64,000 nucleotides of DNA. It comes from Candidatus Latescibacterota bacterium. GTDB taxonomy: Bacteria > Latescibacterota > UBA2968. The translations under genes and the position numbers were made by a program. Under the pieces are notes generated by a model, which made no database searches, was not told where the DNA came from, and was given only the letters and a program-made list of their open reading frames with translations. This document shows positions 1 through 46,801 of this stretch, piece after piece (the first letter of the stretch is position 1; each line of letters opens with the position of its first letter). The stretch is taken from NCBI GenBank assembly GCA_022821275.1, contig JAJEDY010000067.1, forward strand, positions 47,958 through 111,957, written 5' to 3'.

Positions 1-3000
1 TGAGCGCACCTGACGGCAGTTGAAATCGGCGCAACCGCCGAATCGCAGCATTGATGTGCTCGTCCATCTCCCGTGCAATCTCATTCGATTTATCCGATAC
101 GATGAGAATATCCTTGAGATAAAGCTGTGGAAACGTCGCCGACACCACTTGCTCCACACAACCGTAGGGATATTGCACCAGCCACAACAGGCGATTGCCC
201 AGCTTCATATTTGGGCGCGTATGCAGGGTGAGACGCGCGCGATTGGAACCGGGAATGCCCCGATCGGGAACGGGAAGTACAACCGCATCTCCCGGCCGTA
301 TCTCCCGCGTCTCATCGGCACTGATGCGCGGCGACGACGGCGAAATGGTCAGATCCGTCGTATGCGTGGCCATCACATCGCCCGCAGTTGCAGTAATCGC
401 AACGCGCGCATCTCCAATAGCATTGGGCACCACACACATAAATAACACATCTTCTTCACCGGCTTCTTGAAACGCAATGGTATCTCGCACCTGCCCATCA
501 ACGCGAAGCAACCCCTCTGTACTGATTGCCACAGCAACTGGACCCAAACTATCCCTCATTGCAAATACAGTAGCGGGCACAGCAATGCGGTCGCCGGGTC
601 GCAACGCACGCGGCAAAGTGGGCAAAACCATCAAATCCGTTTTCACGGGCACTGTTTTTTCCGCACTGCCATAAGCATTGCCCCGCGCTGCCACAGCCAT
701 GATGCGCACCGAACCGACGTAATTGGGCATAACAAAAGAAACCACAGCGCGCCCCTGATCGTCGGTTGCAGCCGGACCTTCAAAAAGCGATACAGACTTA
801 AAACGCTGTTTCTGCTCCTCGGGTAGCCTATCGCGCCGATAAGCAGCCAGAGCAGCATCGCCGCCTATCGCAAAAGTCTTAAACACATCGCCGATATTGA
901 CACCTATAACCTGCCCAAACAGATCGGAGATATGCAACCCCAAACGCAACTTGCCAAAAAACGCGCGCCAGGGATCGGGCGTGGAAAATTGCGTGATATC
1001 CAGCAAACCCTCATCCACAACAGACAGCGTCAACTGCGCGGGTTTTCCATCACCCGTTTGCACGACAACCTCAAAAGAATCATCGGGTTTGAGTTCATCG
1101 GGTGCAGTCAATGTGAGATCGAGCCGCGTATCTGGATCAACCACGCGCAAAGGCACAACCCCATACATCCGCAACGGGCGATCATTGGCCGTCTGTCTAT
1201 GCGGCTGAATAACGGATATCGTCACGTACGCATTCGGCGCCATGTCTGCTGTAATGGGAATCTCGATTTGCGCAGTATTCCTCGTACTCGGCGTGTGCCA
1301 CCGCGAATGCACCACATTTCCACCGCGCGACACCGTCACCAGCACAGACGGCGTATCGGGCACGGGAAAAGACACCACAGCCGTTTCATCCGACGCGTAA
1401 TTTTCCCGGTCTGTCTTAAGCACCAGTGCGCCAGCATCTCGACCACTTGCGGGCAAACTGCCCCAGGGATACGCGCGAATAAAAAGTGACGCCTTATGCC
1501 CACCTGCATCCTCCACCTCGATCAAATACTCTCCTTTTTTCTCGGGTGTAAACGCAATCGGCACCGAACGATCACGAGAAATAATCGATGTTTCGAAAAT
1601 CTTCTTCGTACTAAAATCCCGCTTAAAACGCAGGCGAAACTGATCCTTCGAATCGTATTCCCACCACCAGTAATTCTCATTGTGAAAAACGCGATACATC
1701 AACGTGCGTCCAGGCGCGGCCTCCCCATCGGGCGTCACCGCCACAACGGGCACTTCAAGAGAGGCATTAATACGCGTAAAACCATAATCCAGGTCTGGCT
1801 TTCGCAACCCCACGTAAACCTCAAACGGATCGATGTGTACCATGCGCGCTGTGCTATTGGGTCGCCCCCCTTTTTCGAGCACGCGAGCGCGCAATATCGC
1901 AGACAGGCGCGAAGGCGCTTCGCTCAAAGACGGAAACTGCCACGACACAGCGGACTTGCCCTCCTTATCCAGAGTGCCCGTAAAAATATTGGTAGTAATC
2001 GGCTTGAATTGAACCGCCTGATTGACAAACGAAAAACCCTCATACTTGGGAAATACAGGCGGAGAACTGTGCAGCGTAACATCGACACTGGCTTTTAATC
2101 CCGCCGCTGGATTGCCAAATAAATACGCACTCCTCAGATCTGCTTTCAACACGCGATCCCGCTCTGCAAGTTGCGGATCGAGAAAGACCTTGAGACGAAA
2201 AGGCACAATGGTTTCCACCTTGACCCTGTGATTAAATTTGCGGCTACCCACATCAATTTCAGCGCGCCAGTTGCCCGTTGGCGCATCGACCGAAGTCGAT
2301 AAATCAAAGATGTAAAATCCATCTTTCCCCTCGCGATTGGTCTGTGTGAGCACGCGCTGTCCCAATGGATTGTAAAACGCGAGCGAGACCGGATGCCCAT
2401 CGGGAAACGTGTGGTTGTGATTTCGCACAATCGCCGACAAATGAATATCATCGCCGGGCCGATAAACCCCGCGCTCCGTATAAAAAAACGCCCGAATACC
2501 ATTGGGTGCAGGGTCTCGTCCCCCCGTATCAAAAGTCGATAGATTCCACGCCATATCCCCTAATTTGATAAAACTGCGCTGCCCATCTTTCTCGGCTTCG
2601 ATATAAAAAACATCTGATTTTACAGAACTAAAATCCGCCAAACCATTCCGATCCGTAACTTTCTGTTCCACAATCTGATTCTGGTATGTGCGCAGGGTTA
2701 TAGTGACACCGGGCAATGGCCGCGCATCTTCCAAATGAGTAGCATAAACGAGATGCCGATCATGCGTCTTTTGATGCGTAAGACCGATATCGCTGACCAC
2801 CACGGGTTTATAGATGCGCCCGTTCTGATAGACATAACCGCGCGAATAGGGATTATTATAATAATCAGTCCCGCGGTACCGTCTGCGTTGTTGCCGCGCC
2901 TCTGCCGCTTCCACAGGGTCTCCGTAGAGCATATCCTCTGCCCCAAAAGTGAGACCGATCAGATAAAGCCCCTTCTCGTCTTTGGAAATCAGATCCTCTA

Positions 3001-4273
3001 AATCGAGTTCGTGCTGCAACCACACATTTTTTTCCCTACCGATATCCAGTGTTGTATCTGCCACCGTCACGCCCACGCGACGCATCCGATAGGAGGAAAT
3101 TCTTCGCGTGCGACTGCGCGATCCATCCAACCTTTCATCTTGTAAAAACTGCCCCAGATTCGACTCAAAAACCTTCTCTATTTTGAGGTGAACACGCGAC
3201 ACATTGACCGTTTGAAACCGGATTTTTCGATTACCAGAAGTGGGCAAAAATACCCCGTCACGCGCAAAACGCATGCGGGGCTTGATATCGTCAAAAGCCA
3301 CCGTCTCTGTATGCGGTTGAGCCAGTGCCATGCCCCAGCGGCTGCGAATCCCCGGATGTACGGTCAACACATAACTCTGTCCGTGCTGAAAATCGCCCAC
3401 AACACTCACTGTTTTGCCAAGCGCGGTGAGTTGAAGCTGTTGCGGTGGATCGGCAGTGATCAACCCCGCAATATCCTGACCAAAATCGAGATCATCTGAA
3501 AAAATAATGCTTACGCTCGGGCGGTCCCGGTCCGCGTATTTTTCAATCTCAACAACGAAAAATGCCGACAAAGGGGGAAGAGACCATGTATTGTCGTAGT
3601 CTTGCGAGAGTTCCAGATCAGCTCGATCAATATGCATCGCAAGTTCCTGAGACTCTCTTGTGCGCGTGATCACGGCACTCGTAAAATCGTGCGTCTTGCC
3701 ATCTGGCAACACGCGCCAATAGAGTGCAAGCCGCTGATCTCCCAGGCGCAACGCCACCGCATCGCTCACAACCGAAGAATCCGCGCGTTCGTTAAAGCTA
3801 ATCTGACCGCTAAAAACGAGACGCTGCGGATCATCCGCATCTGGCAACTCAAAATCTGCCTCGAGTGCGACGAGTTCTCGTCCCGCGACCTCAAACTGGA
3901 TAACGAGTGGCTTCAGATCTTTGTGCTGAGGAAACAAATCGACCATGCTGAGTTCACCGCTATAGACCGCGCGCAACGTCAACGGTGCGTTTGGCTTAAA
4001 AACAAGCGTACGCTCATCTTCCCATGTCGCCAAACCGTCAATAGATGGAACAAAGCGAAACACGCGCGTTCGCAACACCTGACCAACCTGACTTTTGCCA
4101 ATAACAGGCGACACAAAGCGCACGCGAATTGGATCAGTAGAGGCGAGCACCCCCTCACTCACATGACTCACCATACGCGCCGTCTCCAAAGGATAGGATT
4201 GCGGCGCGTCTTCGGGCGACCTTTTGCTACACGCAAACAGCGTCAGCAACGCGAGGAGAGAAATACGGTATGA
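1..4273 (-). CDS. Alpha-2-macroglobulin family lipoprotein, 5' ~1424 codons only; gene runs off the window start
   Basis: Hand translation of the minus strand from the ATG at 4271-4273 gives MSYRISLLALLTLFAC..., a lipobox signal peptide. The frame stays open to position 2, which is why it is absent from the ORF track. The revcomp of 149-172 encodes YPYGCVEQ, the canonical A2M thioester motif, followed by a ...INAAIRRLRRFQLPSGAL segment similar to the YfhM post-thioester region. Confidence 0.85.
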
Positions 4274-6868: not shown

Positions 6869-8788
6869 TCACCGCGTCACCCGAATCGTCCACCCGCCCT
6901 GCAGCTCGGGATTCTTAATCGTCAGAGTAATCCTTCGCAATAGATCTCCCCAAACCGTCTTCAATCGCGCGTCTTCAATCGCGATATCCTCAACCGCCAC
7001 ATCGAACACATCCGCCTCGTAGTACAAACGCCCCGCGCCAGACATGCGTCCATCCGCCAACGCCACCTCACTCAAGGCAATTGTACCATCGCCACAATCT
7101 TCAACGCCACACGCCGTCAACACATTCATCACAACATCGCCCATCACAGCTTTCAACGCATATTGATCTGCAATCGTCACACCCTCGCCGCGATGCAAAA
7201 CAACCGTCCGCATCCACGAATCAATCTGAGCCTCTGGCGGATAGGCCTGCGCCAGATCTAGAGTAAACGTTGCATCCGCCTCGCTCGCCGCATAAGACAC
7301 ATCTCGAGCCGCAATATCGTAGTGATAATCAATCCCCGCCTCGGAATAAACCCGCCCGGGAATCTGCATCTGTCCATTCACCGTCGGCAACGTATGATAC
7401 TGAGACTGCATCGTCCAGATATCATACCGCGTACTGCTAAACGTCTTCGCCGTATAAGTCTCGACCCCCGCATCCACGAGCACGGGCTTGCCATCCAGAT
7501 AGACCACCACGTGCCCGATATCATTGTGATTGTGACTCTCGGCATTGTGCCCGCCCTTTGCCCCCACAAAAAATCCATCTGCCGACCCGCCTTGATCGCG
7601 TGCGACAAACACCTCAATCTCATCCAAAAACACATCGCGCGGCAACGGCGGCGCAGCATCTGCGTCGAGAATCTCATTCAACGAAAACAGCGCGGGCAAC
7701 GCCCGCCCCATGCTCCCAAAAGACTCCGAAATACCCTTCTCGGCAGCACCCTGTTGTTTTGCAGCCCACGCCCCGAGAGCCACCATCGCATCATCCCCAA
7801 TGCGCTTGCCATAGCCATAGGCAACCGCAAAAGCCGGCATCACCACGGGTGACGCATCGGCAAAATTGATAAAATATCGATCCGCAATCTGCACCCGATA
7901 GATAAACTTGCCAATATTCTGAACGAGCGGTTCGTCGTACACATCAATCGCCCCACCCGTTGCACTGTAAAGCCATTCCAAACAATCGTAAAGCGATGCC
8001 CCCGCACGCCCCCAATAGCCCGGCCCCTCGTCACACCCACCGTCTTTCGGATATGGATCGATAAAATGATCCACCGTCTGCATTGCCTTAAACACCGACG
8101 CAACCCGACGCGCCTCATCGGTCTCCATCAACAAAGTAGAAGTCAACCAATTCGACACAATCCACGGATTCCAATTGTTCACGCGCGCACCCGAATACCC
8201 CATCCAGCCAAAGTCTTCGCGCTCCAACAAAGGCGTCAAAATGCGATATTGCATCTCACGCGCAATGCGCGGCACAATCAAAGGCGAAACCGCGTCGAGT
8301 TGCGCGCCGAGCAAATACACCGTCCACGCCAACAATTCCGACGTCTCTGCGGCAAACAGATCGACAATCGGCTCAGCCGTATCCGGCAGGCCACTACCCG
8401 CCTTTTGAACGCCAATATGCGCGGGCACACCCCAGAAAGACTCCTCGCAAATACACCAGATACCATTGGTAATATCATCCAAAAATCTCCCTTTCCCCTC
8501 CACGCATTCTGCCAGAACCAGATCGGACAGCGCCGTGCGCCGCCCAAAACTCAAACTCTCGTACCGCGAGCGATTCCCATTGCGCGCATAATCCAAAAAC
8601 CGCACCGCAGGCACGCCTGGCCATTCAAAATTCAGGCGATCTTCCCCACGCGCAATTTGCGCCTGCCGCACCGCGTCTGGCAACGCATCCCACGCATAGC
8701 GCATTAACGCCGTGGGAAAAGGCCGCCAATCATCCCGCGGAATCAAAATATCTTTTAACACGTCTTCCGAATACTTTTGCGAAAGCAT
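6869..8788 (-). CDS. Heparinase II/III-like protein (polysaccharide lyase family), no signal peptide
   Basis: 639 aa. Alginate-lyase-like N-terminal region and the characteristic GHNAESHNHNDIGHVVVY segment of the heparinase II/III C-terminal domain. Confidence 0.8.
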   Translation of the reverse strand: MLSQKYSEDVLKDILIPRDDWRPFPTALMRYAWDALPDAVRQAQIARGEDRLNFEWPGVPAVRFLDYARNGNRSRYESLSFGRRTALSDLVLAECVEGKGRFLDDITNGIWCICEESFWGVPAHIGVQKAGSGLPDTAEPIVDLFAAETSELLAWTVYLLGAQLDAVSPLIVPRIAREMQYRILTPLLEREDFGWMGYSGARVNNWNPWIVSNWLTSTLLMETDEARRVASVFKAMQTVDHFIDPYPKDGGCDEGPGYWGRAGASLYDCLEWLYSATGGAIDVYDEPLVQNIGKFIYRVQIADRYFINFADASPVVMPAFAVAYGYGKRIGDDAMVALGAWAAKQQGAAEKGISESFGSMGRALPALFSLNEILDADAAPPLPRDVFLDEIEVFVARDQGGSADGFFVGAKGGHNAESHNHNDIGHVVVYLDGKPVLVDAGVETYTAKTFSSTRYDIWTMQSQYHTLPTVNGQMQIPGRVYSEAGIDYHYDIAARDVSYAASEADATFTLDLAQAYPPEAQIDSWMRTVVLHRGEGVTIADQYALKAVMGDVVMNVLTACGVEDCGDGTIALSEVALADGRMSGAGRLYYEADVFDVAVEDIAIEDARLKTVWGDLLRRITLTIKNPELQGGWTIRVTR

Positions 8789-8847
8789 TTATTCCTCCGT
8801 TAATTAAAGCTATCATTCCGACTCTCAACAACAGGAGCAAGAACACC

Positions 8848-9837
8848 ATGCCACTCAAAATTGCACAAATCGGCAGCGACGGACATCAGAACATGGTACT
8901 CGACGGCATCGCGCACATCCCCGACGCACAACTCATCGCCTGCGCCAAAGGGCATCCCGACGACACCCTCGCCAAAATCAAAGCACACGCAGCATTCACC
9001 GCACACACCCGCCTGTATGACGACTATCGCCACATGCTCGACACCGAAGAAATCGATCTCGTCAGCATCTGTCGTCCGTATTCTCTCAATGCCGAAGCCT
9101 CAATAGCAGCAGCAAACCGCGGAATCGACATCGTCAGCGAAAAACCCGTTGCAACCACTCTGAAAGATCTCGACGCCCTTGAAACAGCGGTCAAAAACAG
9201 CGGTATTCGCCTCACCGCCATGTTTGGCCTGAGATTATCCCCCGCATTCCGCGCTGCACACCAGGCAGTCCAGGACGGCCTCATCGGCGAACCCATTCTG
9301 GCAACCGCACAAAAATCCTATCGCTTTGGCACGCGCCCGGACTTTTTCAAACAGCGAGAAACTTACGGCGGCACAATCCCCTGGGTCGCAATCCACGCTG
9401 TCGATTACACGCGCTGGACAACCGGGCGTGAATACACGCAAGTCGCCGCCCTTCACGGCAACCTCGCCCATCCCGACTATCCCGGCTGCGAAGACCACGG
9501 CGGCATGCTCTTTCGCCTGAGCAATGGCGGCACGGCAATGATCAACCTCGATTATTTGCGCCCGTCAACAGCACCCACCCACGGCGACGACCGCCTCCGA
9601 ATCGCCGGATCAGAAGGCGTCATCGAAGTCATCGACGACCACACACATCTGATTCGCTCGGGCGAAGCACCCCGCGACCTGCCCTTGCCACCCGAAGAAA
9701 ATTTTCTCGTCAACCTCCACGGCGAACGCACCGGCAAAGCACCCCACATCATCGGTCCCGACGAAGCCATCAAAGTCACGCGCCTGTGCCTGCGTGCACG
9801 CGAAGCCGCGGACACGGGCAATGTGCTCACACTCTGA
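8848..9837 (+). CDS. Gfo/Idh/MocA family oxidoreductase
   Basis: N-terminal Rossmann region MPLKIAQIGSDGHQ... and the EKP motif (IVSEKPVATT). Confidence 0.85.
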   Translation: MPLKIAQIGSDGHQNMVLDGIAHIPDAQLIACAKGHPDDTLAKIKAHAAFTAHTRLYDDYRHMLDTEEIDLVSICRPYSLNAEASIAAANRGIDIVSEKPVATTLKDLDALETAVKNSGIRLTAMFGLRLSPAFRAAHQAVQDGLIGEPILATAQKSYRFGTRPDFFKQRETYGGTIPWVAIHAVDYTRWTTGREYTQVAALHGNLAHPDYPGCEDHGGMLFRLSNGGTAMINLDYLRPSTAPTHGDDRLRIAGSEGVIEVIDDHTHLIRSGEAPRDLPLPPEENFLVNLHGERTGKAPHIIGPDEAIKVTRLCLRAREAADTGNVLTL

Positions 9838-39549: not shown

Positions 39550-41385
39550 CTACCGAGCAGGTTGCAAACCCCTTTGTATGGGATATGATTCGAGGATCGC
39601 CTCAATCTCTTGTTGAAAACGCTCGAGAGGTTCTGCAACCTGGTGGCGAAATTCTTCGCGGATCAGCCCGCAGTATTCTTGAGCCGCCTTCAACATCACC
39701 TCGGCGTTGTGTTGCAAAGTGCGATAATCGTCCTGAAAATGATCAAACCGCCCGTGCAGGGCGTGCATCAACTTACTCGCGTAATCACCGACACTCACCT
39801 CTTTATATCCCTCGCTAAATCGCTTCAGATGATCCAGCGCCTCATCCAAAAATGTCTGCACCTCATCGACCTGCAGGGCGTCGCGCGTGGTGAGAATCAA
39901 ATGACGACCATGAATGGATATGCGTATGGCATCGCCAAAATCGCGGGGATGATGCAAGAGCATATGGGCCATAAACTTCCAGAACGTCCACCGATAAGTC
40001 CCGACCACTCCCTGGTGCCAAAAAGAGCGCAATCCCGCCCTGAGTTCCGTCCAACCAACTGGCATTGACGGGATCGGTCTGCGCACGCGATGTGCATAAT
40101 GCGTGCGGCAGCGTTCAAAGAAAATCTCTGGACTATTCAGCGTTTCGAGGACCTTGCGATGGCGCGCCAACAACTCGTCGGGATCAATGAGGGGCACATA
40201 ACTCAACTCCCGACTAAAAATACCCGAATCACCCGTATATTTTACGTCTTCACGCAGACGGCCCAACCGCTTGTAGCGCTTGTAATCGGGGGTGTCGCGC
40301 AGCACGCCCAAAACCCCCACCATAGCCACCGGAATACCCGCTTCTCTTATAAAAGCAATCATGCGGTCCGCAATATCATCTGGATCCGTATCCAGGCCCA
40401 TAATAAAACCGGCCTGAACTTCCATGCCGTATTCTTGCAGAATCTTCACTTTGTCCAGCAAAGGCGTATCGCCCTGCAAGTTCTTTTGCGCGCCCATAAA
40501 CTTCAGGCTTTCTTCCACTGGCGATTCAATGCCCGCAAACATTTTATCAAACCCGGCGAGGTACATCGCCTCTAACAACGCGGGATCATCACTCACCCGA
40601 ATACTGGCCTGTGTAAAGAGCTGGAAAGGATACCCGCGCGCGCTCTGCCAGGGAACCACCTCTTCTTCCAGTGTTTGTCGAATCTCTTCGCGGTTGCCAA
40701 CAAAATTGTCATCAACCGCCATAACCGAGCCGCGCCAACCTCTATCGTAAAGCGCGTCCAGTTCTTGAATCACGCGGCTGCTATTTTTTAAACGCGTTAT
40801 CTTGCCGTATAGCGCGGGAATATTGCAAAACGTACAACTTTCGGGACAACCCCTTGTAATCTGAATCACCATCACCGTATAATCGTCAAAATTGATCAAA
40901 TCCCAGTTCGGAAGCGGTGTAGTGGTGAGACTTTGAAATTCACCTCGCCGATCAATGTACTCTCGCCCCCCCTTATAAGGCTCGGCCACCAAACGATCGA
41001 CCACATCCATAAATCCATTCTCTGCCTCGCCCAAATAAAAGACCGCATCTCCCTCAATATCTTCGCAATACTGCGTGGGCAATGGACCGCCATTGAGCAC
41101 GGGCACGCCTGCGACATTGCACTGGGCAATAATTTCTTCGAGGGAATGCCAGTGAATAATCATCGACGATGTAATCACAACATCTGCCCAATCCAGATCT
41201 TCATCTGTCAGCGGATGCACATTCACATCCACCACGCGCAAACTGTAGTGCTCGGGCATCATACCGGCAATCGTCAACAACCCCAAAGGCGGAAAAGCAG
41301 ACTTCTTTCCGACCAACCTCAAAGCCTCATCAAAACTCCAGAACGTCACCGGATTTTTTGGATATACAAGCAACGCGTTGGGCAT
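39550..41385 (-). CDS. B12-binding domain radical SAM protein (class B) with a DUF4070-like C-terminus
   Basis: N-terminal cobalamin-binding Rossmann-like domain, the CPESCTFC (CxxxCxxC) cluster motif, and a long helical C-terminal extension. Confidence 0.75.
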   Translation of the reverse strand: MPNALLVYPKNPVTFWSFDEALRLVGKKSAFPPLGLLTIAGMMPEHYSLRVVDVNVHPLTDEDLDWADVVITSSMIIHWHSLEEIIAQCNVAGVPVLNGGPLPTQYCEDIEGDAVFYLGEAENGFMDVVDRLVAEPYKGGREYIDRRGEFQSLTTTPLPNWDLINFDDYTVMVIQITRGCPESCTFCNIPALYGKITRLKNSSRVIQELDALYDRGWRGSVMAVDDNFVGNREEIRQTLEEEVVPWQSARGYPFQLFTQASIRVSDDPALLEAMYLAGFDKMFAGIESPVEESLKFMGAQKNLQGDTPLLDKVKILQEYGMEVQAGFIMGLDTDPDDIADRMIAFIREAGIPVAMVGVLGVLRDTPDYKRYKRLGRLREDVKYTGDSGIFSRELSYVPLIDPDELLARHRKVLETLNSPEIFFERCRTHYAHRVRRPIPSMPVGWTELRAGLRSFWHQGVVGTYRWTFWKFMAHMLLHHPRDFGDAIRISIHGRHLILTTRDALQVDEVQTFLDEALDHLKRFSEGYKEVSVGDYASKLMHALHGRFDHFQDDYRTLQHNAEVMLKAAQEYCGLIREEFRHQVAEPLERFQQEIEAILESYPIQRGLQPAR

Positions 41386-41599
41386 ACAGCTATCCTTTCA
41401 CAAAATGAACAACCAAGAACTTCTGATGGTTCAATATACCACAATTTTTTCGTAACTCATAGAAAAAACGAGAGCATCCAGATCGGGAAAATGTGATACC
41501 TCGAATCGTCGCGAACAATAAACCTTGATTTACACCGTAATTTGCGATAATTTTTCTGTACCTATCCATGGAGACAATAGCTGGGGCAAGGAGGCTAAC

Positions 41600-42925
41600 A
41601 TGAAAATGATACAAAAGCCAACCAACCGTTTGCTACCTGCCATAATACTATCAATCGCGCTACTCGGATGCAGTAAATTACCGGAGGTCTCTCCCACGGC
41701 ACCGCCTTCAACTGAGACAGAAGAAACACAATCAAACGAAGTGCGATCAGAAAAGACGCGAGTGGCCGTACCTCTGGCGACAGATTCAGAGCTAACAGAC
41801 CTGGTCCGCGGAAACAACGACTTCGCCTTTGGCCTGTATCAAAAGTTGCGCGAAGAAGAAAGCGGAAACCTGTTTTATTCGCCCTACAGCATCTCGCTGG
41901 CACTTGCGATGACCTATGCCGGCGCCAGGGACGAAACCGAACGCCAGATGTCAAACGCACTACACTTCACCCTGTCCCAGGACAAGTTGCACCCCGCGTT
42001 CAACGCCCTCGATCTCCTGCTCGCCTCTCGCGGCGAAGGAAGCAGTGGCCAGGATGGCAAGGGGTTTCGATTGAACATCGCCAATGCCATCTGGGGACAA
42101 CGGGGCTATGCCTTCCTGCAGAACTTTCTGGACAAACTCGCTGAAAATTACGGCGCTGGAATGAGAATTGCAAACTTCACTGAAGCGCCTGAAGATTCGC
42201 GCGTCACAATCAACGATTGGGTTGCCAATCAAACAGAAGAGAAAATCAAAGATTTGATTCCTTCCGGTGCCATTAACCCCTTGACTCGTTTAGTCCTGAC
42301 AAACGCCATCTATTTCAACGCGGCGTGGCTCCACCCTTTCGACGTAAGAGCCACTGCTGAAGGCGACTTCCATTTGCTAAATGGCAGCAGCGTAAAAGCA
42401 CCCATGATGCGACAGACCGAATCATTCGGCTATGCGAGGAGCACGGGATATCAAGCTGTGGAATTGCTCTACGACGGCAGTGAAATATCCATGGTCATCC
42501 TGCTCCCCGACAAAGGCACTTTTGACGCGTTCGAAAATACGCTAAACGCCGAACTCATCAGTCAGATATCGAAAGACCTGAGACGCCAGCGCATAGAACT
42601 CACCATGCCCTCATTTGGATTTGAAGCGCAATTCAAATTGGGTGCAACCCTCAAGAAGATGGGAATGTCCGATGCCTTTGACCCGCAATTAGCGGACTTC
42701 TCGGGCATGGATGGAACAAAAGACCTGTCCATTTCAGATGCGTTTCACAAGGCGTTTGTCCTGGTCAATGAGAATGGCACAGAAGCCGCTGCTGCTACCG
42801 GCGTAGTCATAGGCGTAACATCCCTTCCCCCCAGAGTCACGGTCGATCGGCCATTCATCTTCCTCATCCGGGACATAGCGACCAATACCACCCTGTTTGT
42901 CGGGCGAGTAATGGACCCGAGATAA
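41600..42925 (+). CDS. Serpin (serine protease inhibitor) lipoprotein with an inhibitory-type hinge
   Basis: Lipobox LLGCSK. Serpin core (NAIYFNAAW, FHKAFVLVNENGTEAAAATG) and the RCL ...VVIGVTSLPPRVTVDRPFIF. AAGGAGG ribosome-binding site. Confidence 0.85.
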   Translation: MKMIQKPTNRLLPAIILSIALLGCSKLPEVSPTAPPSTETEETQSNEVRSEKTRVAVPLATDSELTDLVRGNNDFAFGLYQKLREEESGNLFYSPYSISLALAMTYAGARDETERQMSNALHFTLSQDKLHPAFNALDLLLASRGEGSSGQDGKGFRLNIANAIWGQRGYAFLQNFLDKLAENYGAGMRIANFTEAPEDSRVTINDWVANQTEEKIKDLIPSGAINPLTRLVLTNAIYFNAAWLHPFDVRATAEGDFHLLNGSSVKAPMMRQTESFGYARSTGYQAVELLYDGSEISMVILLPDKGTFDAFENTLNAELISQISKDLRRQRIELTMPSFGFEAQFKLGATLKKMGMSDAFDPQLADFSGMDGTKDLSISDAFHKAFVLVNENGTEAAAATGVVIGVTSLPPRVTVDRPFIFLIRDIATNTTLFVGRVMDPR

Positions 42926-42942
42926 TACAAGGATATCACAAC

Positions 42943-43692
42943 ATGATCACAGAAGAAGACCTCTGGTATTTCAAAACCACTGGATTTTACAAAGTCCGCG
43001 AGACCCTGCCTGGCGACCTTGTCGATCGCCTAAACGAGGTCACCTCCCGGCAAATTGCAGGCATGCGCGCACCCATTGTTTGGGAAGAAAAAGAAGATCG
43101 GACGCCAGAAAATGTACGCCGTCTCTCAAAAATTTTCTTGCGAGACCCCGTCTATTTTGAAGCCGCGTCTCACCCCATCATCCTCAACGCCCTCGAAGGC
43201 ATCATCGGTCCAAACATCGAAGTACTCACCAACAAACACAACCACGTCATGGTGCGCCCATCCGGATCTTATCCCGTCCCCTGGCACGCCGGTGAAGAAC
43301 CCTATGACCACACCCTTATCACCGGTTTAATATATCTCGAAGAATCAACCGTTGAAAACGGATGTGTACGCATCGTGCCCGGCAGCCATAACCGGCCATT
43401 TCTCAACCCGCGCCGACCACAGAAACAAAGAGACAATTTTTACTACAGCGACAACTATTACCGCGCAGTGCCAATCCCCATGCCGCGCGGCGGTGTCCTC
43501 CTCTTTAACGACTGCTGTTATCACGGATCTGACACAAATAGTTCCGATCATTCTCGCCGCAGCATGACGGTTGCCTATCGCGCCCACGACGCCCACGACG
43601 TGATCAAAGACGACCCGGAAAAAGTTCTCGTACGCGGCGAAAAAGTCTATACGGGACATCCCCATCCCTATTCTCTTCCCGTTCAGGAGTAA
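42943..43692 (+). CDS. PhyH-family Fe(II)/2OG oxygenase paralog with H-A-G in place of the H-x-D/E iron ligand (halogenase-like motif)
   Basis: Aligns with the downstream paralog (…NKHNH…YLEE…ENGC.RIVPGSH…). H-A-G aligns exactly to the H-R-D of the paralog. The second His (GSHN) is conserved. Confidence 0.65.
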   Translation: MITEEDLWYFKTTGFYKVRETLPGDLVDRLNEVTSRQIAGMRAPIVWEEKEDRTPENVRRLSKIFLRDPVYFEAASHPIILNALEGIIGPNIEVLTNKHNHVMVRPSGSYPVPWHAGEEPYDHTLITGLIYLEESTVENGCVRIVPGSHNRPFLNPRRPQKQRDNFYYSDNYYRAVPIPMPRGGVLLFNDCCYHGSDTNSSDHSRRSMTVAYRAHDAHDVIKDDPEKVLVRGEKVYTGHPHPYSLPVQE

Positions 43693-43695
43693 GAC

Positions 43696-44403
43696 ATGCC
43701 CTCACTCACCATGCGACAAATCCAGCTCTTTCGAAACAACGGATTTCTCTGTCTTCCAGACCGCCTACCAGAAAAAATGGTTGAAAACTTAAAGACCGCT
43801 ATCACGGAAGACATTGACCGCAAAATCGAACCCATCGTACGCAATAAGAATGGCCGCGCCGTGCGTATCTCTGCCCTTATGGACCGCGCGCCGATCTTCC
43901 GAGAAGCAGTCACGCATCCACACGCGCTCGACCCACTCGAATCGCTTCTGGGACCCAACATCGAAATCCTCACCAACCGCCACAATCACGCCACCTTGCG
44001 CACAGCAGAAGACAACAAAGGCGCGTATCTTCACCGCGATGTCAGACAGTGGACGCGCACCATCTACACCATCATCTTTTACCTCGAAGAAACCACCCTT
44101 GAAAATGGATGCACCCGCATTGTACCCGGATCGCATCACTTCCCCGGCGTCTCCACATCTATTCACGATGCAGACTGGGCAAGCGACGTCCTCGGTCAAG
44201 CACTCCCCGTACCCATGCCCGCAGGTGGCATGCTCGCAATCGACAGCATGGTTGTCCACGGCGCAGGCGAAAACCATACCGACGACACGCGCATGAGCAT
44301 GACGGTTGGCTATCACAGCGTCGATGAACTCATGGACATTCCCAATCCCAAACGCCTGCTCGTGCGCGGCGAGGGACTGTATAACGGGAATGATCGAAAA
44401 TAG
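43696..44403 (+). CDS. Phytanoyl-CoA dioxygenase (PhyH) family Fe(II)/2OG oxygenase, canonical HxD…H
   Basis: LHRDV...RIVPGSHH motifs. It is a tandem paralog of the upstream gene, 4 nt away. Confidence 0.75.
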   Translation: MPSLTMRQIQLFRNNGFLCLPDRLPEKMVENLKTAITEDIDRKIEPIVRNKNGRAVRISALMDRAPIFREAVTHPHALDPLESLLGPNIEILTNRHNHATLRTAEDNKGAYLHRDVRQWTRTIYTIIFYLEETTLENGCTRIVPGSHHFPGVSTSIHDADWASDVLGQALPVPMPAGGMLAIDSMVVHGAGENHTDDTRMSMTVGYHSVDELMDIPNPKRLLVRGEGLYNGNDRK

Positions 44404-44488
44404 GATCGGGATTTTCAGAGCTTGCACTGGAAAGGTTCTATCCAGTGATTAAAGGATTGCAGACTGTGATCATTGCAGGCTGCATTTT

Positions 44489-44516
44489 ACTTCTCACTTC
44501 TCACTTCTCACTTCTT
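44489..44516. repeat. Tandem heptamer array (ACTTCTC x3, ACTTCTT), copy B of the dispersed family
   Basis: Read directly from the sequence. It sits in the 123-nt gap upstream of the sulfatase gene. Confidence 0.75.
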
Positions 44517-44526
44517 CTTTCGCCTT

Positions 44527-45990
44527 ATGACGCCTAATATTATCATCATCATCTCCGACCAGCACAATCCCCATGCAATGGGATGTGCGGGAAATCCCAT
44601 TGTGCAAACGCCCAATTTAGATACGCTTGCGCGTCGCGGAACCCGGTTCCGCAATGCGTATTGCCCCTATCCCCTCTGTGCGCCTTCGCGGTCGGGCTTT
44701 ATGTCCGCGCAGTACCCCAGCGATGTGGGCGTCTATGACAACAGCGGCAGCCTGTCATTTGACACCCCCACATTTGCCCATGCATTTGGCGCGGCGGGAT
44801 ACGAAGCCGTACTATGCGGTCGCATGCACTTTAGAAACCCCGACCAATTCCACGGCTTTGAAAAACGCATCCACGCCGACTGCGGCGGGCTATCCGCAGA
44901 AATTCTCGGCTCTGGATACAACCGCACCACGGGACAGACCAAATACGGCGTCCAGGTATCCGGCTATGGCGAAACCGGTTATCGCTACTTTGACAAATCC
45001 GTCACCGAAACAGCCTGCAAATTCATCGCCGATCGGCAAAACAGCGACAGACCTTATGCCCTCGTCGTCGGCTACATGAACCCGCACAATCCCCTCATCT
45101 GCGGCAGAGAAGACTTCGAGTATTACATGGCGCAAATCCCACCGCTCGAACCCGAATCACCCGAATACCTAAACGCCTTGCATCCGGCCATGAAAAAATG
45201 GCGCGAGCGACGCGGCGTTGAAGACATCACGCCAGAACAAAACCGCCGCGGGTTAGCCGCTTATTACGGCCTGACGACCGAACTTGACCGGTATATCGGT
45301 CAAATCATTGACACCGTACAATCCTCCTCTAATGCAGACAACACCGTCATCATCTACACCTCGGACCACGGCGACATGGCCCATGAACACGGCATGTGGT
45401 GGAAAAGCAGTTTTTACGAAGGCTCTGTGGGCATTCCCATGATCTGCTCATGGCCGGGCCATCTTCACGAAAACCACACCGAAGATGCCATCGTCAACCT
45501 CATCGACGTAGGCCCCACAGCTCTGGACATTGTGGGCGCAGACCCCCTGCCCGATGTCTCGGGCAAAAGTTTCGCCTCATTCCTCCAGGGTACCCCACCA
45601 TCGGACTGGCCCAATGAAGTCTTTGCAGAATACATCGGCCTACTCGGCGACCAGCCCGCGTGCATGCTCCGCACGGGACCGTGGAAATTGAACTATTACT
45701 CCGAATTTGACTCTTGCCAATTGTTCAACATCGATCAGGATCCCGAAGAACGTCGCGACCTGTCCAATGATCCCCGATATCGTGACGTAATCCAATCGGG
45801 CCTCAAAAAAATCTTTGCACGCTGGTCTGCTGATGACATTTTAAAACAAGCCGAACGACAAGCGCGCGCCCGAGTACTCATCGCGCGCTGTGGACACAGC
45901 CACATCCCCCACGCCATCCCCCCATTCGCGCCAAACATCGACGAAGTAAACGAATTCGACTTCTCACAACTACCCGAAGACCCGAGATAG
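44527..45990 (+). CDS. Sulfatase (type I), canonical C-A-P-S-R motif; no signal peptide
   Basis: MTPNIIIIISDQHNPH... and CPYPLCAPSRSGFMSAQYP. 487 aa from the internal ATG at 44527. Confidence 0.85.
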   Translation: MTPNIIIIISDQHNPHAMGCAGNPIVQTPNLDTLARRGTRFRNAYCPYPLCAPSRSGFMSAQYPSDVGVYDNSGSLSFDTPTFAHAFGAAGYEAVLCGRMHFRNPDQFHGFEKRIHADCGGLSAEILGSGYNRTTGQTKYGVQVSGYGETGYRYFDKSVTETACKFIADRQNSDRPYALVVGYMNPHNPLICGREDFEYYMAQIPPLEPESPEYLNALHPAMKKWRERRGVEDITPEQNRRGLAAYYGLTTELDRYIGQIIDTVQSSSNADNTVIIYTSDHGDMAHEHGMWWKSSFYEGSVGIPMICSWPGHLHENHTEDAIVNLIDVGPTALDIVGADPLPDVSGKSFASFLQGTPPSDWPNEVFAEYIGLLGDQPACMLRTGPWKLNYYSEFDSCQLFNIDQDPEERRDLSNDPRYRDVIQSGLKKIFARWSADDILKQAERQARARVLIARCGHSHIPHAIPPFAPNIDEVNEFDFSQLPEDPR

Positions 45991-46069: not shown

Positions 46070-46801
46070 ATGACACGAGGACGATTGCTGGTCTTGCTGA
46101 CTGGCCTGCTATTATTGTGCGGGTGCGGCGGCGAACGCGATCCCGTCGTTGAAATGCAAAAATCGCTGGCCTCGGCACCGGCATATATGATTGTATTGGA
46201 TGACATGCGTGAAGAAGGCACTCTTTTCACCACGTATTATCACCGGTATTTAATTACACAGGGAGAAAAAAAGGTACAATCGGACTGGATAGAAGTATCG
46301 GAATCCATCTATCGAAAATACGAACCATTTTTGGGAATGGCGCTCGTTGCCAAATCGGAGCAAGATGGGGTAAACAATACGCCACATCCCCCCGGATACC
46401 ACTATGTGGGCAATCCGAGCTACGGGCGTTGGACGGATCGCGGAGGCACATCGTTCTGGGAATTCTACGGCCAATACGCGCTCATGAGTCATTTGCTCGG
46501 TTGGGGTGGCGGATTTGGCATGAGTCGCTACGATTACGACGATTATCGGTCTTACCGCCGGGATCGACGTCCGTATTACGGACGAAATCGGGAGTATGGC
46601 ACGCAGGGATCTGTCACGCAAAAACAAAAACCATCGACATTCCAGCGGCGCCAGGCAAACATAGCGCAAAAGAGACAGTCGTTTACACAAAGAGTACAAA
46701 GTCGCGCGAGCCAGAACCGCACGGGATTTGGCAGCTCGCGTTCAACAAGTCGCAGCCGATCTGGATTTGGCAGCCGCAGTTTTGGAGGGTTTGGAAAATG
46801 A
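46070..46801 (+). CDS. DUF1190/YjfM-like lipoprotein
   Basis: Lipobox LLLLCGCGG. The SFWEFYGQYALMSHLLGWGGGFG segment and the Ser/Arg/Gly-rich tail resemble E. coli YjfM. Confidence 0.5.
   Translation: MTRGRLLVLLTGLLLLCGCGGERDPVVEMQKSLASAPAYMIVLDDMREEGTLFTTYYHRYLITQGEKKVQSDWIEVSESIYRKYEPFLGMALVAKSEQDGVNNTPHPPGYHYVGNPSYGRWTDRGGTSFWEFYGQYALMSHLLGWGGGFGMSRYDYDDYRSYRRDRRPYYGRNREYGTQGSVTQKQKPSTFQRRQANIAQKRQSFTQRVQSRASQNRTGFGSSRSTSRSRSGFGSRSFGGFGK

Follow-up and report, generated by a model that had tools for sequence, protein, structure and literature searches.

The motif H-x-G/A, which lacks the carboxylate of the H-x-D/E...H facial triad, is used for mining and recognising Fe(II)/2-oxoglutarate (2OG) halogenases (PMC11186838, PMC12871659, PMC12346261), although HXA/G searches yield false positives according to the authors of one halogenase-mining pipeline (PMC12871659). 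Human AspH, whose motif is HXG...H and whose protein supplies no more than two ligands, is a genuine 2OG hydroxylase, and the D201G variant of FIH is still an active hydroxylase (PMC10947486). The residues concerned in AspH are H679, G681, D721 and H725. In place of the carboxylate there is a water on the iron, to which D721 hydrogen-bonds; the backbone carbonyl of D721 hydrogen-bonds the amide of G681, and about 80% of activity/turnover is lost in the D721A variant (PMC10915816). In plants, H-x-G and H-x-D paralogs adjoin at the dechloroacutumine halogenase locus (DAH/DAH-like/FLS) (PMC12346261). The present analysis concerns two adjacent genes, hereafter A and B, located in a 64,000-nucleotide stretch of DNA from Candidatus Latescibacterota bacterium (GenBank assembly GCA_022821275.1, contig JAJEDY010000067.1, positions 47,958 to 111,957 of the forward strand), the whole of which is referred to as the window. 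Both genes encode PhyH-family proteins. B carries the canonical H-x-D motif, whereas A carries H-x-G together with an Asp four residues before its distal His, as in AspH. These features suggest that A is an unusual hydroxylase rather than a halogenase.

The public ENA scaffold that contains this sequence yielded the same genes A and B (Table 1) when genes were called independently. Their products match the PhyH family PF05721 with 84.4 bits (1.8e-23) for A and 85.1 bits (~1e-23) for B, the cutoff being 22, and align colinearly with 37% identity over 242 columns (BLASTP, E 5e-49). A preliminary description, made from the sequence alone, was thus right in presenting them as tandem colinear PhyH paralogs; the gap between them, which it gave as 4 nt, is a 3-nt spacer (TAA-GAC-ATG). 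In the pairwise alignment, residues W114-H115-A116-G117-E118 of A pair with L112-H113-R114-D115-V116 of B. The distal His is kept as H194 (A) and H188 (B), and each protein has an Arg at +11 from it (R205 and R199, respectively). The facial triad H-x-D/E...H is found in B (H113-R-D115...H188) and not in A (H115-A-G117...H194), a difference that the preliminary description had also read correctly. From the position of its ribosome-binding site inside the end of A, B appears to be translationally coupled to A.

A search of 5.8 billion proteins returned 119 homologous clusters. When these were aligned with A and B (121 sequences), W-H-[SA]-G-E was nearly invariant and the Gly was present in 116; in alignment A1, made of 48 sequences with identity down to 49%, all 48 had the Gly of H-x-G. 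Because of this conservation, G117 is neither a one-off nor a sequencing error. A profile search was then made of 1.84 billion representatives, and the best 150 were classed by motif: 122 carried H-x-D and 10 carried H-x-G. The nearest relatives of the H-x-G group in this search form a very large canonical set with the signature H-R-D-[VI]-x-Q-W-S-R, and B belongs to this large clade (HRD[VI]xQWSR). In a neighbour-joining tree the H-x-G group, of about 100 protein clusters, is monophyletic; whether such homologues form a clade was a check that the preliminary description had proposed. L076 (Poribacteria, HRGE) and P0120 (HRGA) branch at the base of the group, and the canonical P0121 (HRDA) is the outgroup. 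According to a scan of one genome per species, the clade occurs mainly in Latescibacterota and Gemmatimonadota; Poribacteria and Planctomycetota contribute a few members, and metagenome-assembled genomes (MAGs) of Thermoanaerobaculia, Vicinamibacteraceae and Rhodothermales gave single matches. The closest matches to the window are Latescibacterota MAGs, with 93-97% identity.

Since A and B lie in separate old clades of the tree, they are ancient paralogs; a recent tandem duplication was rejected for this reason and because of their 37% identity. Across 13 orthologous loci, the ratio of non-synonymous to synonymous substitution rates (dN/dS) ranges from 0.07 to 0.14 for A and from 0.06 to 0.14 for B, which indicates purifying selection. 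With a ratio of about 0.1, A is therefore a functional gene. That it might be a pseudogene or a decaying copy was rejected on the same ground and on that of some 100 full-length homologues (90% identity clusters) with invariant catalytic residues.

The carboxylate that is missing from A after the proximal His has a counterpart before the distal one. D190, at the distal His minus 4 (hereafter -4), is invariant in A1, as is H194, and is 98% conserved in 101 full-length members of the clade, in which G117 reaches 100%. Among the 107 H-x-D representatives that cover the region, none has Asp at -4, and 97 have Ser, Gly, Ala or Cys. Gapless alignments give a stepwise series from P0121 (WHRDA/THGCLLH) through P0120 (WHRGA/MNDAVFH) and L076 (WHRGE/FNDALFH) to A (WHAGE/FNDCCYH), in which the carboxylate is gone from His+2 and gained at -4 at the same tree node. 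In the preliminary description, an acidic residue at the position of the ligand, either the adjacent Glu of H-A-G-E or another one, was named as counting against the halogenase reading. This applies in part: D190 is an additional acid that could take or serve that position and is found in H-x-G members only, whereas the Glu is not diagnostic. E118 as a replacement ligand was not supported, since SyrB2 (HQAD) and EvdO2 (HQDE) carry an acid there while using other ligands; the basal P0120 has Ala at this position.

The AlphaFold2 model of A is a double-stranded beta-helix (DSBH), with a predicted local distance difference test score (pLDDT) of 86.8 overall and 94-97 at residues 181-200. In the secondary structure assigned to this model with DSSP, a strand ends with H115 and the loop after it contains G117; D190 comes just after the strand 185-189, and the following strand begins with H194. 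By the canonical topology of the fold, the H115/G117 loop and the D190 loop would be neighbours. Foldseek matches of the model include PHYH (3.5e-14, TM-score 0.72), EvdO1 and SnoN (both at about 1e-13), SyrB2 (~4e-13) and GriE. Throughout the clade, H115, H194, R205 and N199 do not vary, and Ser is the majority residue at position 196; the His, Ser, Asn and Arg of A align with the corresponding residues of human PHYH (phmmer), and Arg or Lys occupies the position of R205 in 105 of the 107 H-x-D relatives. Because these ligand and cosubstrate residues are conserved and align with those of human PHYH, binding of both iron and 2OG has probably been retained in A. The canonical PhyH oxygenases (human PHYH, EvdO1/EvdO2/AviO1, SnoN/SnoK, EctD and GriE) are its best matches in both sequence and structure. 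The distal His, with Ser at +2 and Arg at +11 from it, is common to them and A; they differ from A in having H-x-D and a non-acidic residue at -4 (Ser, Pro or Phe where read).

The arrangement of the four residues in A is that of AspH. The spacing is identical (H115/G117/D190/H194 against H679/G681/D721/H725), with Asp-x3-His in both proteins. AspH itself differs from A in that it belongs to another DSBH family, is eukaryotic and membrane-anchored, has a TPR domain and hydroxylates EGF-domain proteins. No homology of A to the AspH family was found: PhyH was its sole Pfam match at E<=0.01, and AspH was missing from its PDB sequence matches listed up to E=1. By this comparison, A is an analogue of AspH and not a member of its family, with a resemblance that is convergent and positional.

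We therefore favour, with a probability of about 0.55, that A is an AspH-like or relocated-carboxylate two-His oxygenase; that it is a halogenase is less likely than that it is a hydroxylase of an unusual kind. A would be an active Fe(II)/2OG oxygenase of the PhyH fold in which the iron is held by H115 and H194 alone. With G117 in the place of the usual Asp, D190, which has arisen on the neighbouring loop, would compensate for the lost ligand, either by a hydrogen bond to a water on the iron at the vacated position, as does Asp721 of AspH, or by binding the iron directly. The chemistry would be ordinary oxygen rebound, i.e. hydroxylation or a related oxidation, and no halogenation would take place. 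Together with B and a divergently encoded B12-binding radical S-adenosylmethionine (SAM) enzyme, A may modify one cytoplasmic substrate, which the product of the adjoining hydrolase gene, choline-sulfatase-like here and a cobalt nitrile hydratase in other genomes, would process further.

Several points weigh against this interpretation. The co-occurrence of Gly and Asp represents one clade and one evolutionary event, and so has little statistical weight. That D190 faces the metal site is inferred from the secondary structure of the model and the canonical topology. AspH comes from a different DSBH family, which makes the analogy positional and not homologous. On the side of the halogenases, the residue at -4 was read in SyrB2 and CytC3 only. 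To our knowledge, moreover, the characterised natural Fe/2OG enzymes with H-x-G/A are, besides AspH, halogenases.

The preliminary description saw in H-A-G...H a halogenase-like facial dyad. A genuine Fe(II)/2OG halogenase would use the Gly to free a site for chloride or bromide and would chlorinate a small, free-standing molecule at a carbon that is not activated, and B would hydroxylate the same scaffold. The motif has proved real and conserved, and it stands at the position found in halogenases. When the clade was aligned with SyrB2, profile against profile (probability 92%, no gaps around either motif), the residues of A paired with those of SyrB2 as H115/H116, G117/A118, E118/D119, D190/S231 and H194/H235. 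SyrB2 and CytC3 have the Pfam family and the PhyH fold in common with A, a small residue in the carboxylate column (A118 against G117) and an acid at His+3 (D119 against E118). Several of the related genomes are, by their record names, marine or sponge-associated MAGs (e.g. Poribacteria), from settings where halide would be abundant. The invariant Asp of A, however, stands where SyrB2 (Ser231) and CytC3 have Ser in their PDB sequences, and a carboxylate by the anion site should disfavour halide. The beta-carbon of S231, with A118 and F121, reportedly lines the chloride pocket of SyrB2, an account that goes back to Blasiak and co-workers in 2006; the residue numbering agrees with the PDB sequence. 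The position of D190 would then lie next to the vacated site in the PhyH family as well, which counts in favour of the AspH-like reading. Asp at -4 is a feature of the non-halogenating AspH (PMC10915816).

The family scores and the gene context point in the same direction. Against the 'chlorinating enzyme' model TIGR01762, with a cutoff of 226 bits, A scored 29 bits, no better than the canonical B with 35 bits, which places A outside the curated SyrB2/CmaB-type subfamily. The TM-score of SyrB2 to A is 0.60, below the approximately 0.70 of hydroxylases. SyrB2 and CytC3 also differ from A in being about 60 residues longer, with insertions, and in their dependence on a carrier protein. Among the annotated recurrent neighbour families of A, no gene for a carrier protein, a non-ribosomal peptide synthetase, a polyketide synthase or an amino-acid pathway was found; the neighbours look catabolic (major facilitator superfamily (MFS) transporter, GFO/Idh/MocA, aldo-keto reductase, amidohydrolase, sulfatase, nitrile hydratase and glycoside hydrolase family 2 (GH2)). 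The gene context and the score against TIGR01762 were the grounds for rejecting a carrier-dependent halogenase of the SyrB2 type. The plant DAH locus offers a parallel in its side-by-side H-x-G and H-x-D paralogs, and to that extent speaks for halogenation, but those paralogs are recent duplicates (64-95% identity) of another 2OG-oxygenase family with shown halogenase activity, whereas A and B are old and 37% identical. False positives are, moreover, known from HXA/G searches. On balance, it is unlikely that A is a halogenase. A broader form of this idea is that the H-x-G/Asp(-4) clade, widespread in uncultured Latescibacterota, Gemmatimonadota and Poribacteria, constitutes a new family of Fe/2OG halogenases of the free-standing kind or, more generally, of anion-transfer enzymes, working with the canonical paralog and the B12-radical-SAM enzyme to form or break down a halogenated, sulfated or nitrile-bearing metabolite; this we consider speculative and distinctly unlikely.

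Two further explanations leave hydroxylation aside. The protein might keep the fold and use H115, H194, D190 and E118 for different chemistry, such as binding another metal, epimerisation, desaturation or a lyase-type cleavage. Around the site there are two new acids that are invariant in A1, and the closest solved relatives include enzymes that do not hydroxylate, namely the epimerase SnoN, the carbocyclase SnoK and the orthoester-forming EvdO/AviO. The Arg and Ser that bind 2OG are nevertheless kept, E118 is dispensable in the basal P0120 while ordinary family members also carry an acid there, and no sequence feature discriminates between reaction outcomes, so that we regard different chemistry as quite improbable. 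It is still less probable that A is a catalytically dead or regulatory partner of B, e.g. one half of a heterodimer in which it shapes the substrate pocket. The lost carboxylate ligand, the predicted translational coupling and the recurrence of the A-B pair in at least two phyla are all compatible with such a role, and heterodimeric Fe/2OG pairs exist in the PDB (TlxI/TlxJ, 7vbq). Roughly half of the loci, on the other hand, have an A-clade gene without B or the radical SAM gene; A works alone in many genomes, which disfavours a dead subunit. The two His are also invariant, as are the Arg that binds 2OG and many residues of the pocket; dN/dS is about 0.1, and AspH and FIH D201G demonstrate that two His are enough for catalysis (PMC10947486).

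Table 1. Genes and sequence elements of the A-B region (positions in the window)
Feature	Position	Strand	Description	Basis or remark
B12-binding radical SAM protein	39550..41385	-	DUF4070, 611 aa, CxxxCxxC at residue 180	Pfam; divergent from the A-B operon
Serpin	41525..42925	+	Lipoprotein-like N-terminus; 17 nt upstream of A	Pfam 5e-118
Gene A	42943..43692	+	249 aa, PhyH-family Fe(II)/2OG-type protein, H-x-G clade	ORF + Pfam
H115-A116-G117-E118 codons	43285..43296	+	CAC GCC GGT GAA; proximal His, then Gly replacing the carboxylate ligand	
D190-C-C-Y-H194 codons	43510..43524	+	Clade-specific Asp at distal His minus 4, plus distal His	
R205 codon	43555..43557	+	Distal His +11; predicted 2OG C5-carboxylate-binding Arg	
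Ribosome-binding site of B, stop codon of A and 3-nt spacer	43685..43695	+	AGGAG inside the last codons of A	
Gene B	43696..44403	+	235 aa, canonical PhyH-family oxygenase, H113-R-D115...H188...R199	
Cys-type sulfatase, choline-sulfatase-like	44473..45990	+	CAPSR at 44677; published call starts at ATG 44527	Pfam Sulfatase 2e-48

The context of the clade was mapped by tblastn over 84 loci. The three genes of the module (radical SAM, A and B), either adjacent or no more than 4 kb apart, were found together in 33 of these, from at least two phyla. The radical SAM gene beside A-B pairs was counted in 35 loci in all, in Latescibacterota and Gemmatimonadota, and the module in about 36 of the 84. In loci of the window type, which comprise that of the window scaffold itself (L001) and 18 from Latescibacterota MAGs, the divergent radical SAM gene, A and B are accompanied by a choline-sulfatase-like gene; two of them are without the radical SAM gene and one is without the sulfatase. 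The sulfatase that the preliminary description placed downstream of the pair is indeed present and is of the Cys type, with the motif CAPSR; it scored 318 bits against the NCBIfam choline-sulfatase model, below the cutoff of 433. A second type of locus (n=15: L044, L045, L047, L049, L056, L057, L059, L063, L065, L067, L070, L072, L073, L081 and L083), found in Latescibacterota and Gemmatimonadota, has the same three genes followed by those of the nitrile hydratase beta and alpha subunits and accessory genes, at ~7500-9100 in each locus (L057: ~1750-3100). In the representatives tested, the beta subunit, the alpha subunit (VCTLCSC) and the accessory protein of this cobalt-type enzyme all scored above their NCBIfam cutoffs. 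One locus of this type is without B, and another starts too near A to show the radical SAM gene. The flanks encode GFO/Idh/MocA, aldo-keto reductase, MFS and amidohydrolase proteins and one unknown gene. The radical SAM gene, A and B therefore form a conserved module, and the hydrolase downstream of it is interchangeable. No published description of a known cluster combining radical SAM, PhyH and nitrile hydratase genes was found, the literature search giving only unrelated papers on ribosomal peptides with post-translational modifications (RiPPs).

In about 45 of the 84 loci, A has no adjacent B or radical SAM gene. The surroundings of these stand-alone genes are varied and catabolic-looking, with GH2, aldose epimerase, short-chain dehydrogenase/reductase, xylose-isomerase-like TIM barrel and other PhyH genes. 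Stand-alone A genes often lie near unrelated PhyH paralogs (clusters c19 and c23; L034, L035, L039-L042, L048 and L079, and L037, L043, L050, L052, L053, L058, L060, L062 and L066), which suggests that PhyH oxygenases are broadly expanded in these phyla.

The serpin gene is found, between the radical SAM gene and A, in the 13 closest relatives only (L005-L017) and is absent from L019, L028, L064 and L077; as a lineage-specific insertion, it was rejected as a part of the module. It is probably co-transcribed with A. A scan for promoters and terminators from the serpin to the sulfatase gave sites no more frequent than in shuffled sequence, and neither supports nor breaks an operon.

As to the substrate, an obvious signal peptide is found in none of A, B and the sulfatase, so that it is probably cytoplasmic. 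The clade-specific invariant basic residues R59, R60, K63, K98, R158, R206 and K222 give a hint that the substrate of A may be anionic. The preliminary description had, speculatively, suggested a sulfated or lipid substrate. For the radical SAM protein there is no closely related curated family; its top matches in NCBIfam (ApyD, PhpK-type P-methyltransferase etc.) are far below their cutoffs. Equally far below the cutoffs, the best match of A is a methylphosphonate hydroxylase and that of the sulfatase a PehA-type ester hydrolase; together with the P-methyltransferase-type match of the radical SAM protein, these are only leads to the substrate.

Sulfatase and nitrile hydratase are both enzymes with a post-translationally oxidised active-site cysteine. 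Even more speculative than the anion-transfer family considered above is the idea that the radical SAM enzyme, A and B modify the adjacent hydrolase itself; it is raised because sulfatases (formylglycine) and nitrile hydratases (Cys-sulfinate/sulfenate) need this oxidised cysteine.

Beyond the sulfatase gene, positions 46070-46801 of the window (+ strand) hold an open reading frame of 243 codons whose product has a lipoprotein-type N-terminus (LLLCGC), an Arg/Ser/Gly-rich C-terminal tail and no Pfam match; DUF350 and spermine-synthase-like genes come next. The GC skew is negative (-0.07 to -0.29) up to ~46 kb, where open reading frames lie on both strands, and then near zero or positive. The minimum of the cumulative skew, at ~46-50 kb, may mark a switch of the replication strand.

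The clade of A carries the signature used for halogenase mining within the fold family of SyrB2, and yet has a carboxylate at a neighbouring position as in AspH, which among two-His hydroxylases is the only one to have been studied well. If A hydroxylates, the strategy of AspH would have a second example, independent of the first and bacterial, and Asp at the distal His minus 4 would provide a simple rule for removing false positives from halogenase mining. Halogenation by A in spite of the Asp would be an even greater surprise. The basal series (HRD/Gly, HRG/Asp, H[SA]GE/Asp) and the canonical paralog B together make a tractable system for the question of halogenation versus hydroxylation. 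The module of radical SAM gene, A and B, in which sulfatase and nitrile hydratase can stand in for each other, points to a pathway not yet characterised, in phyla of which little is known.

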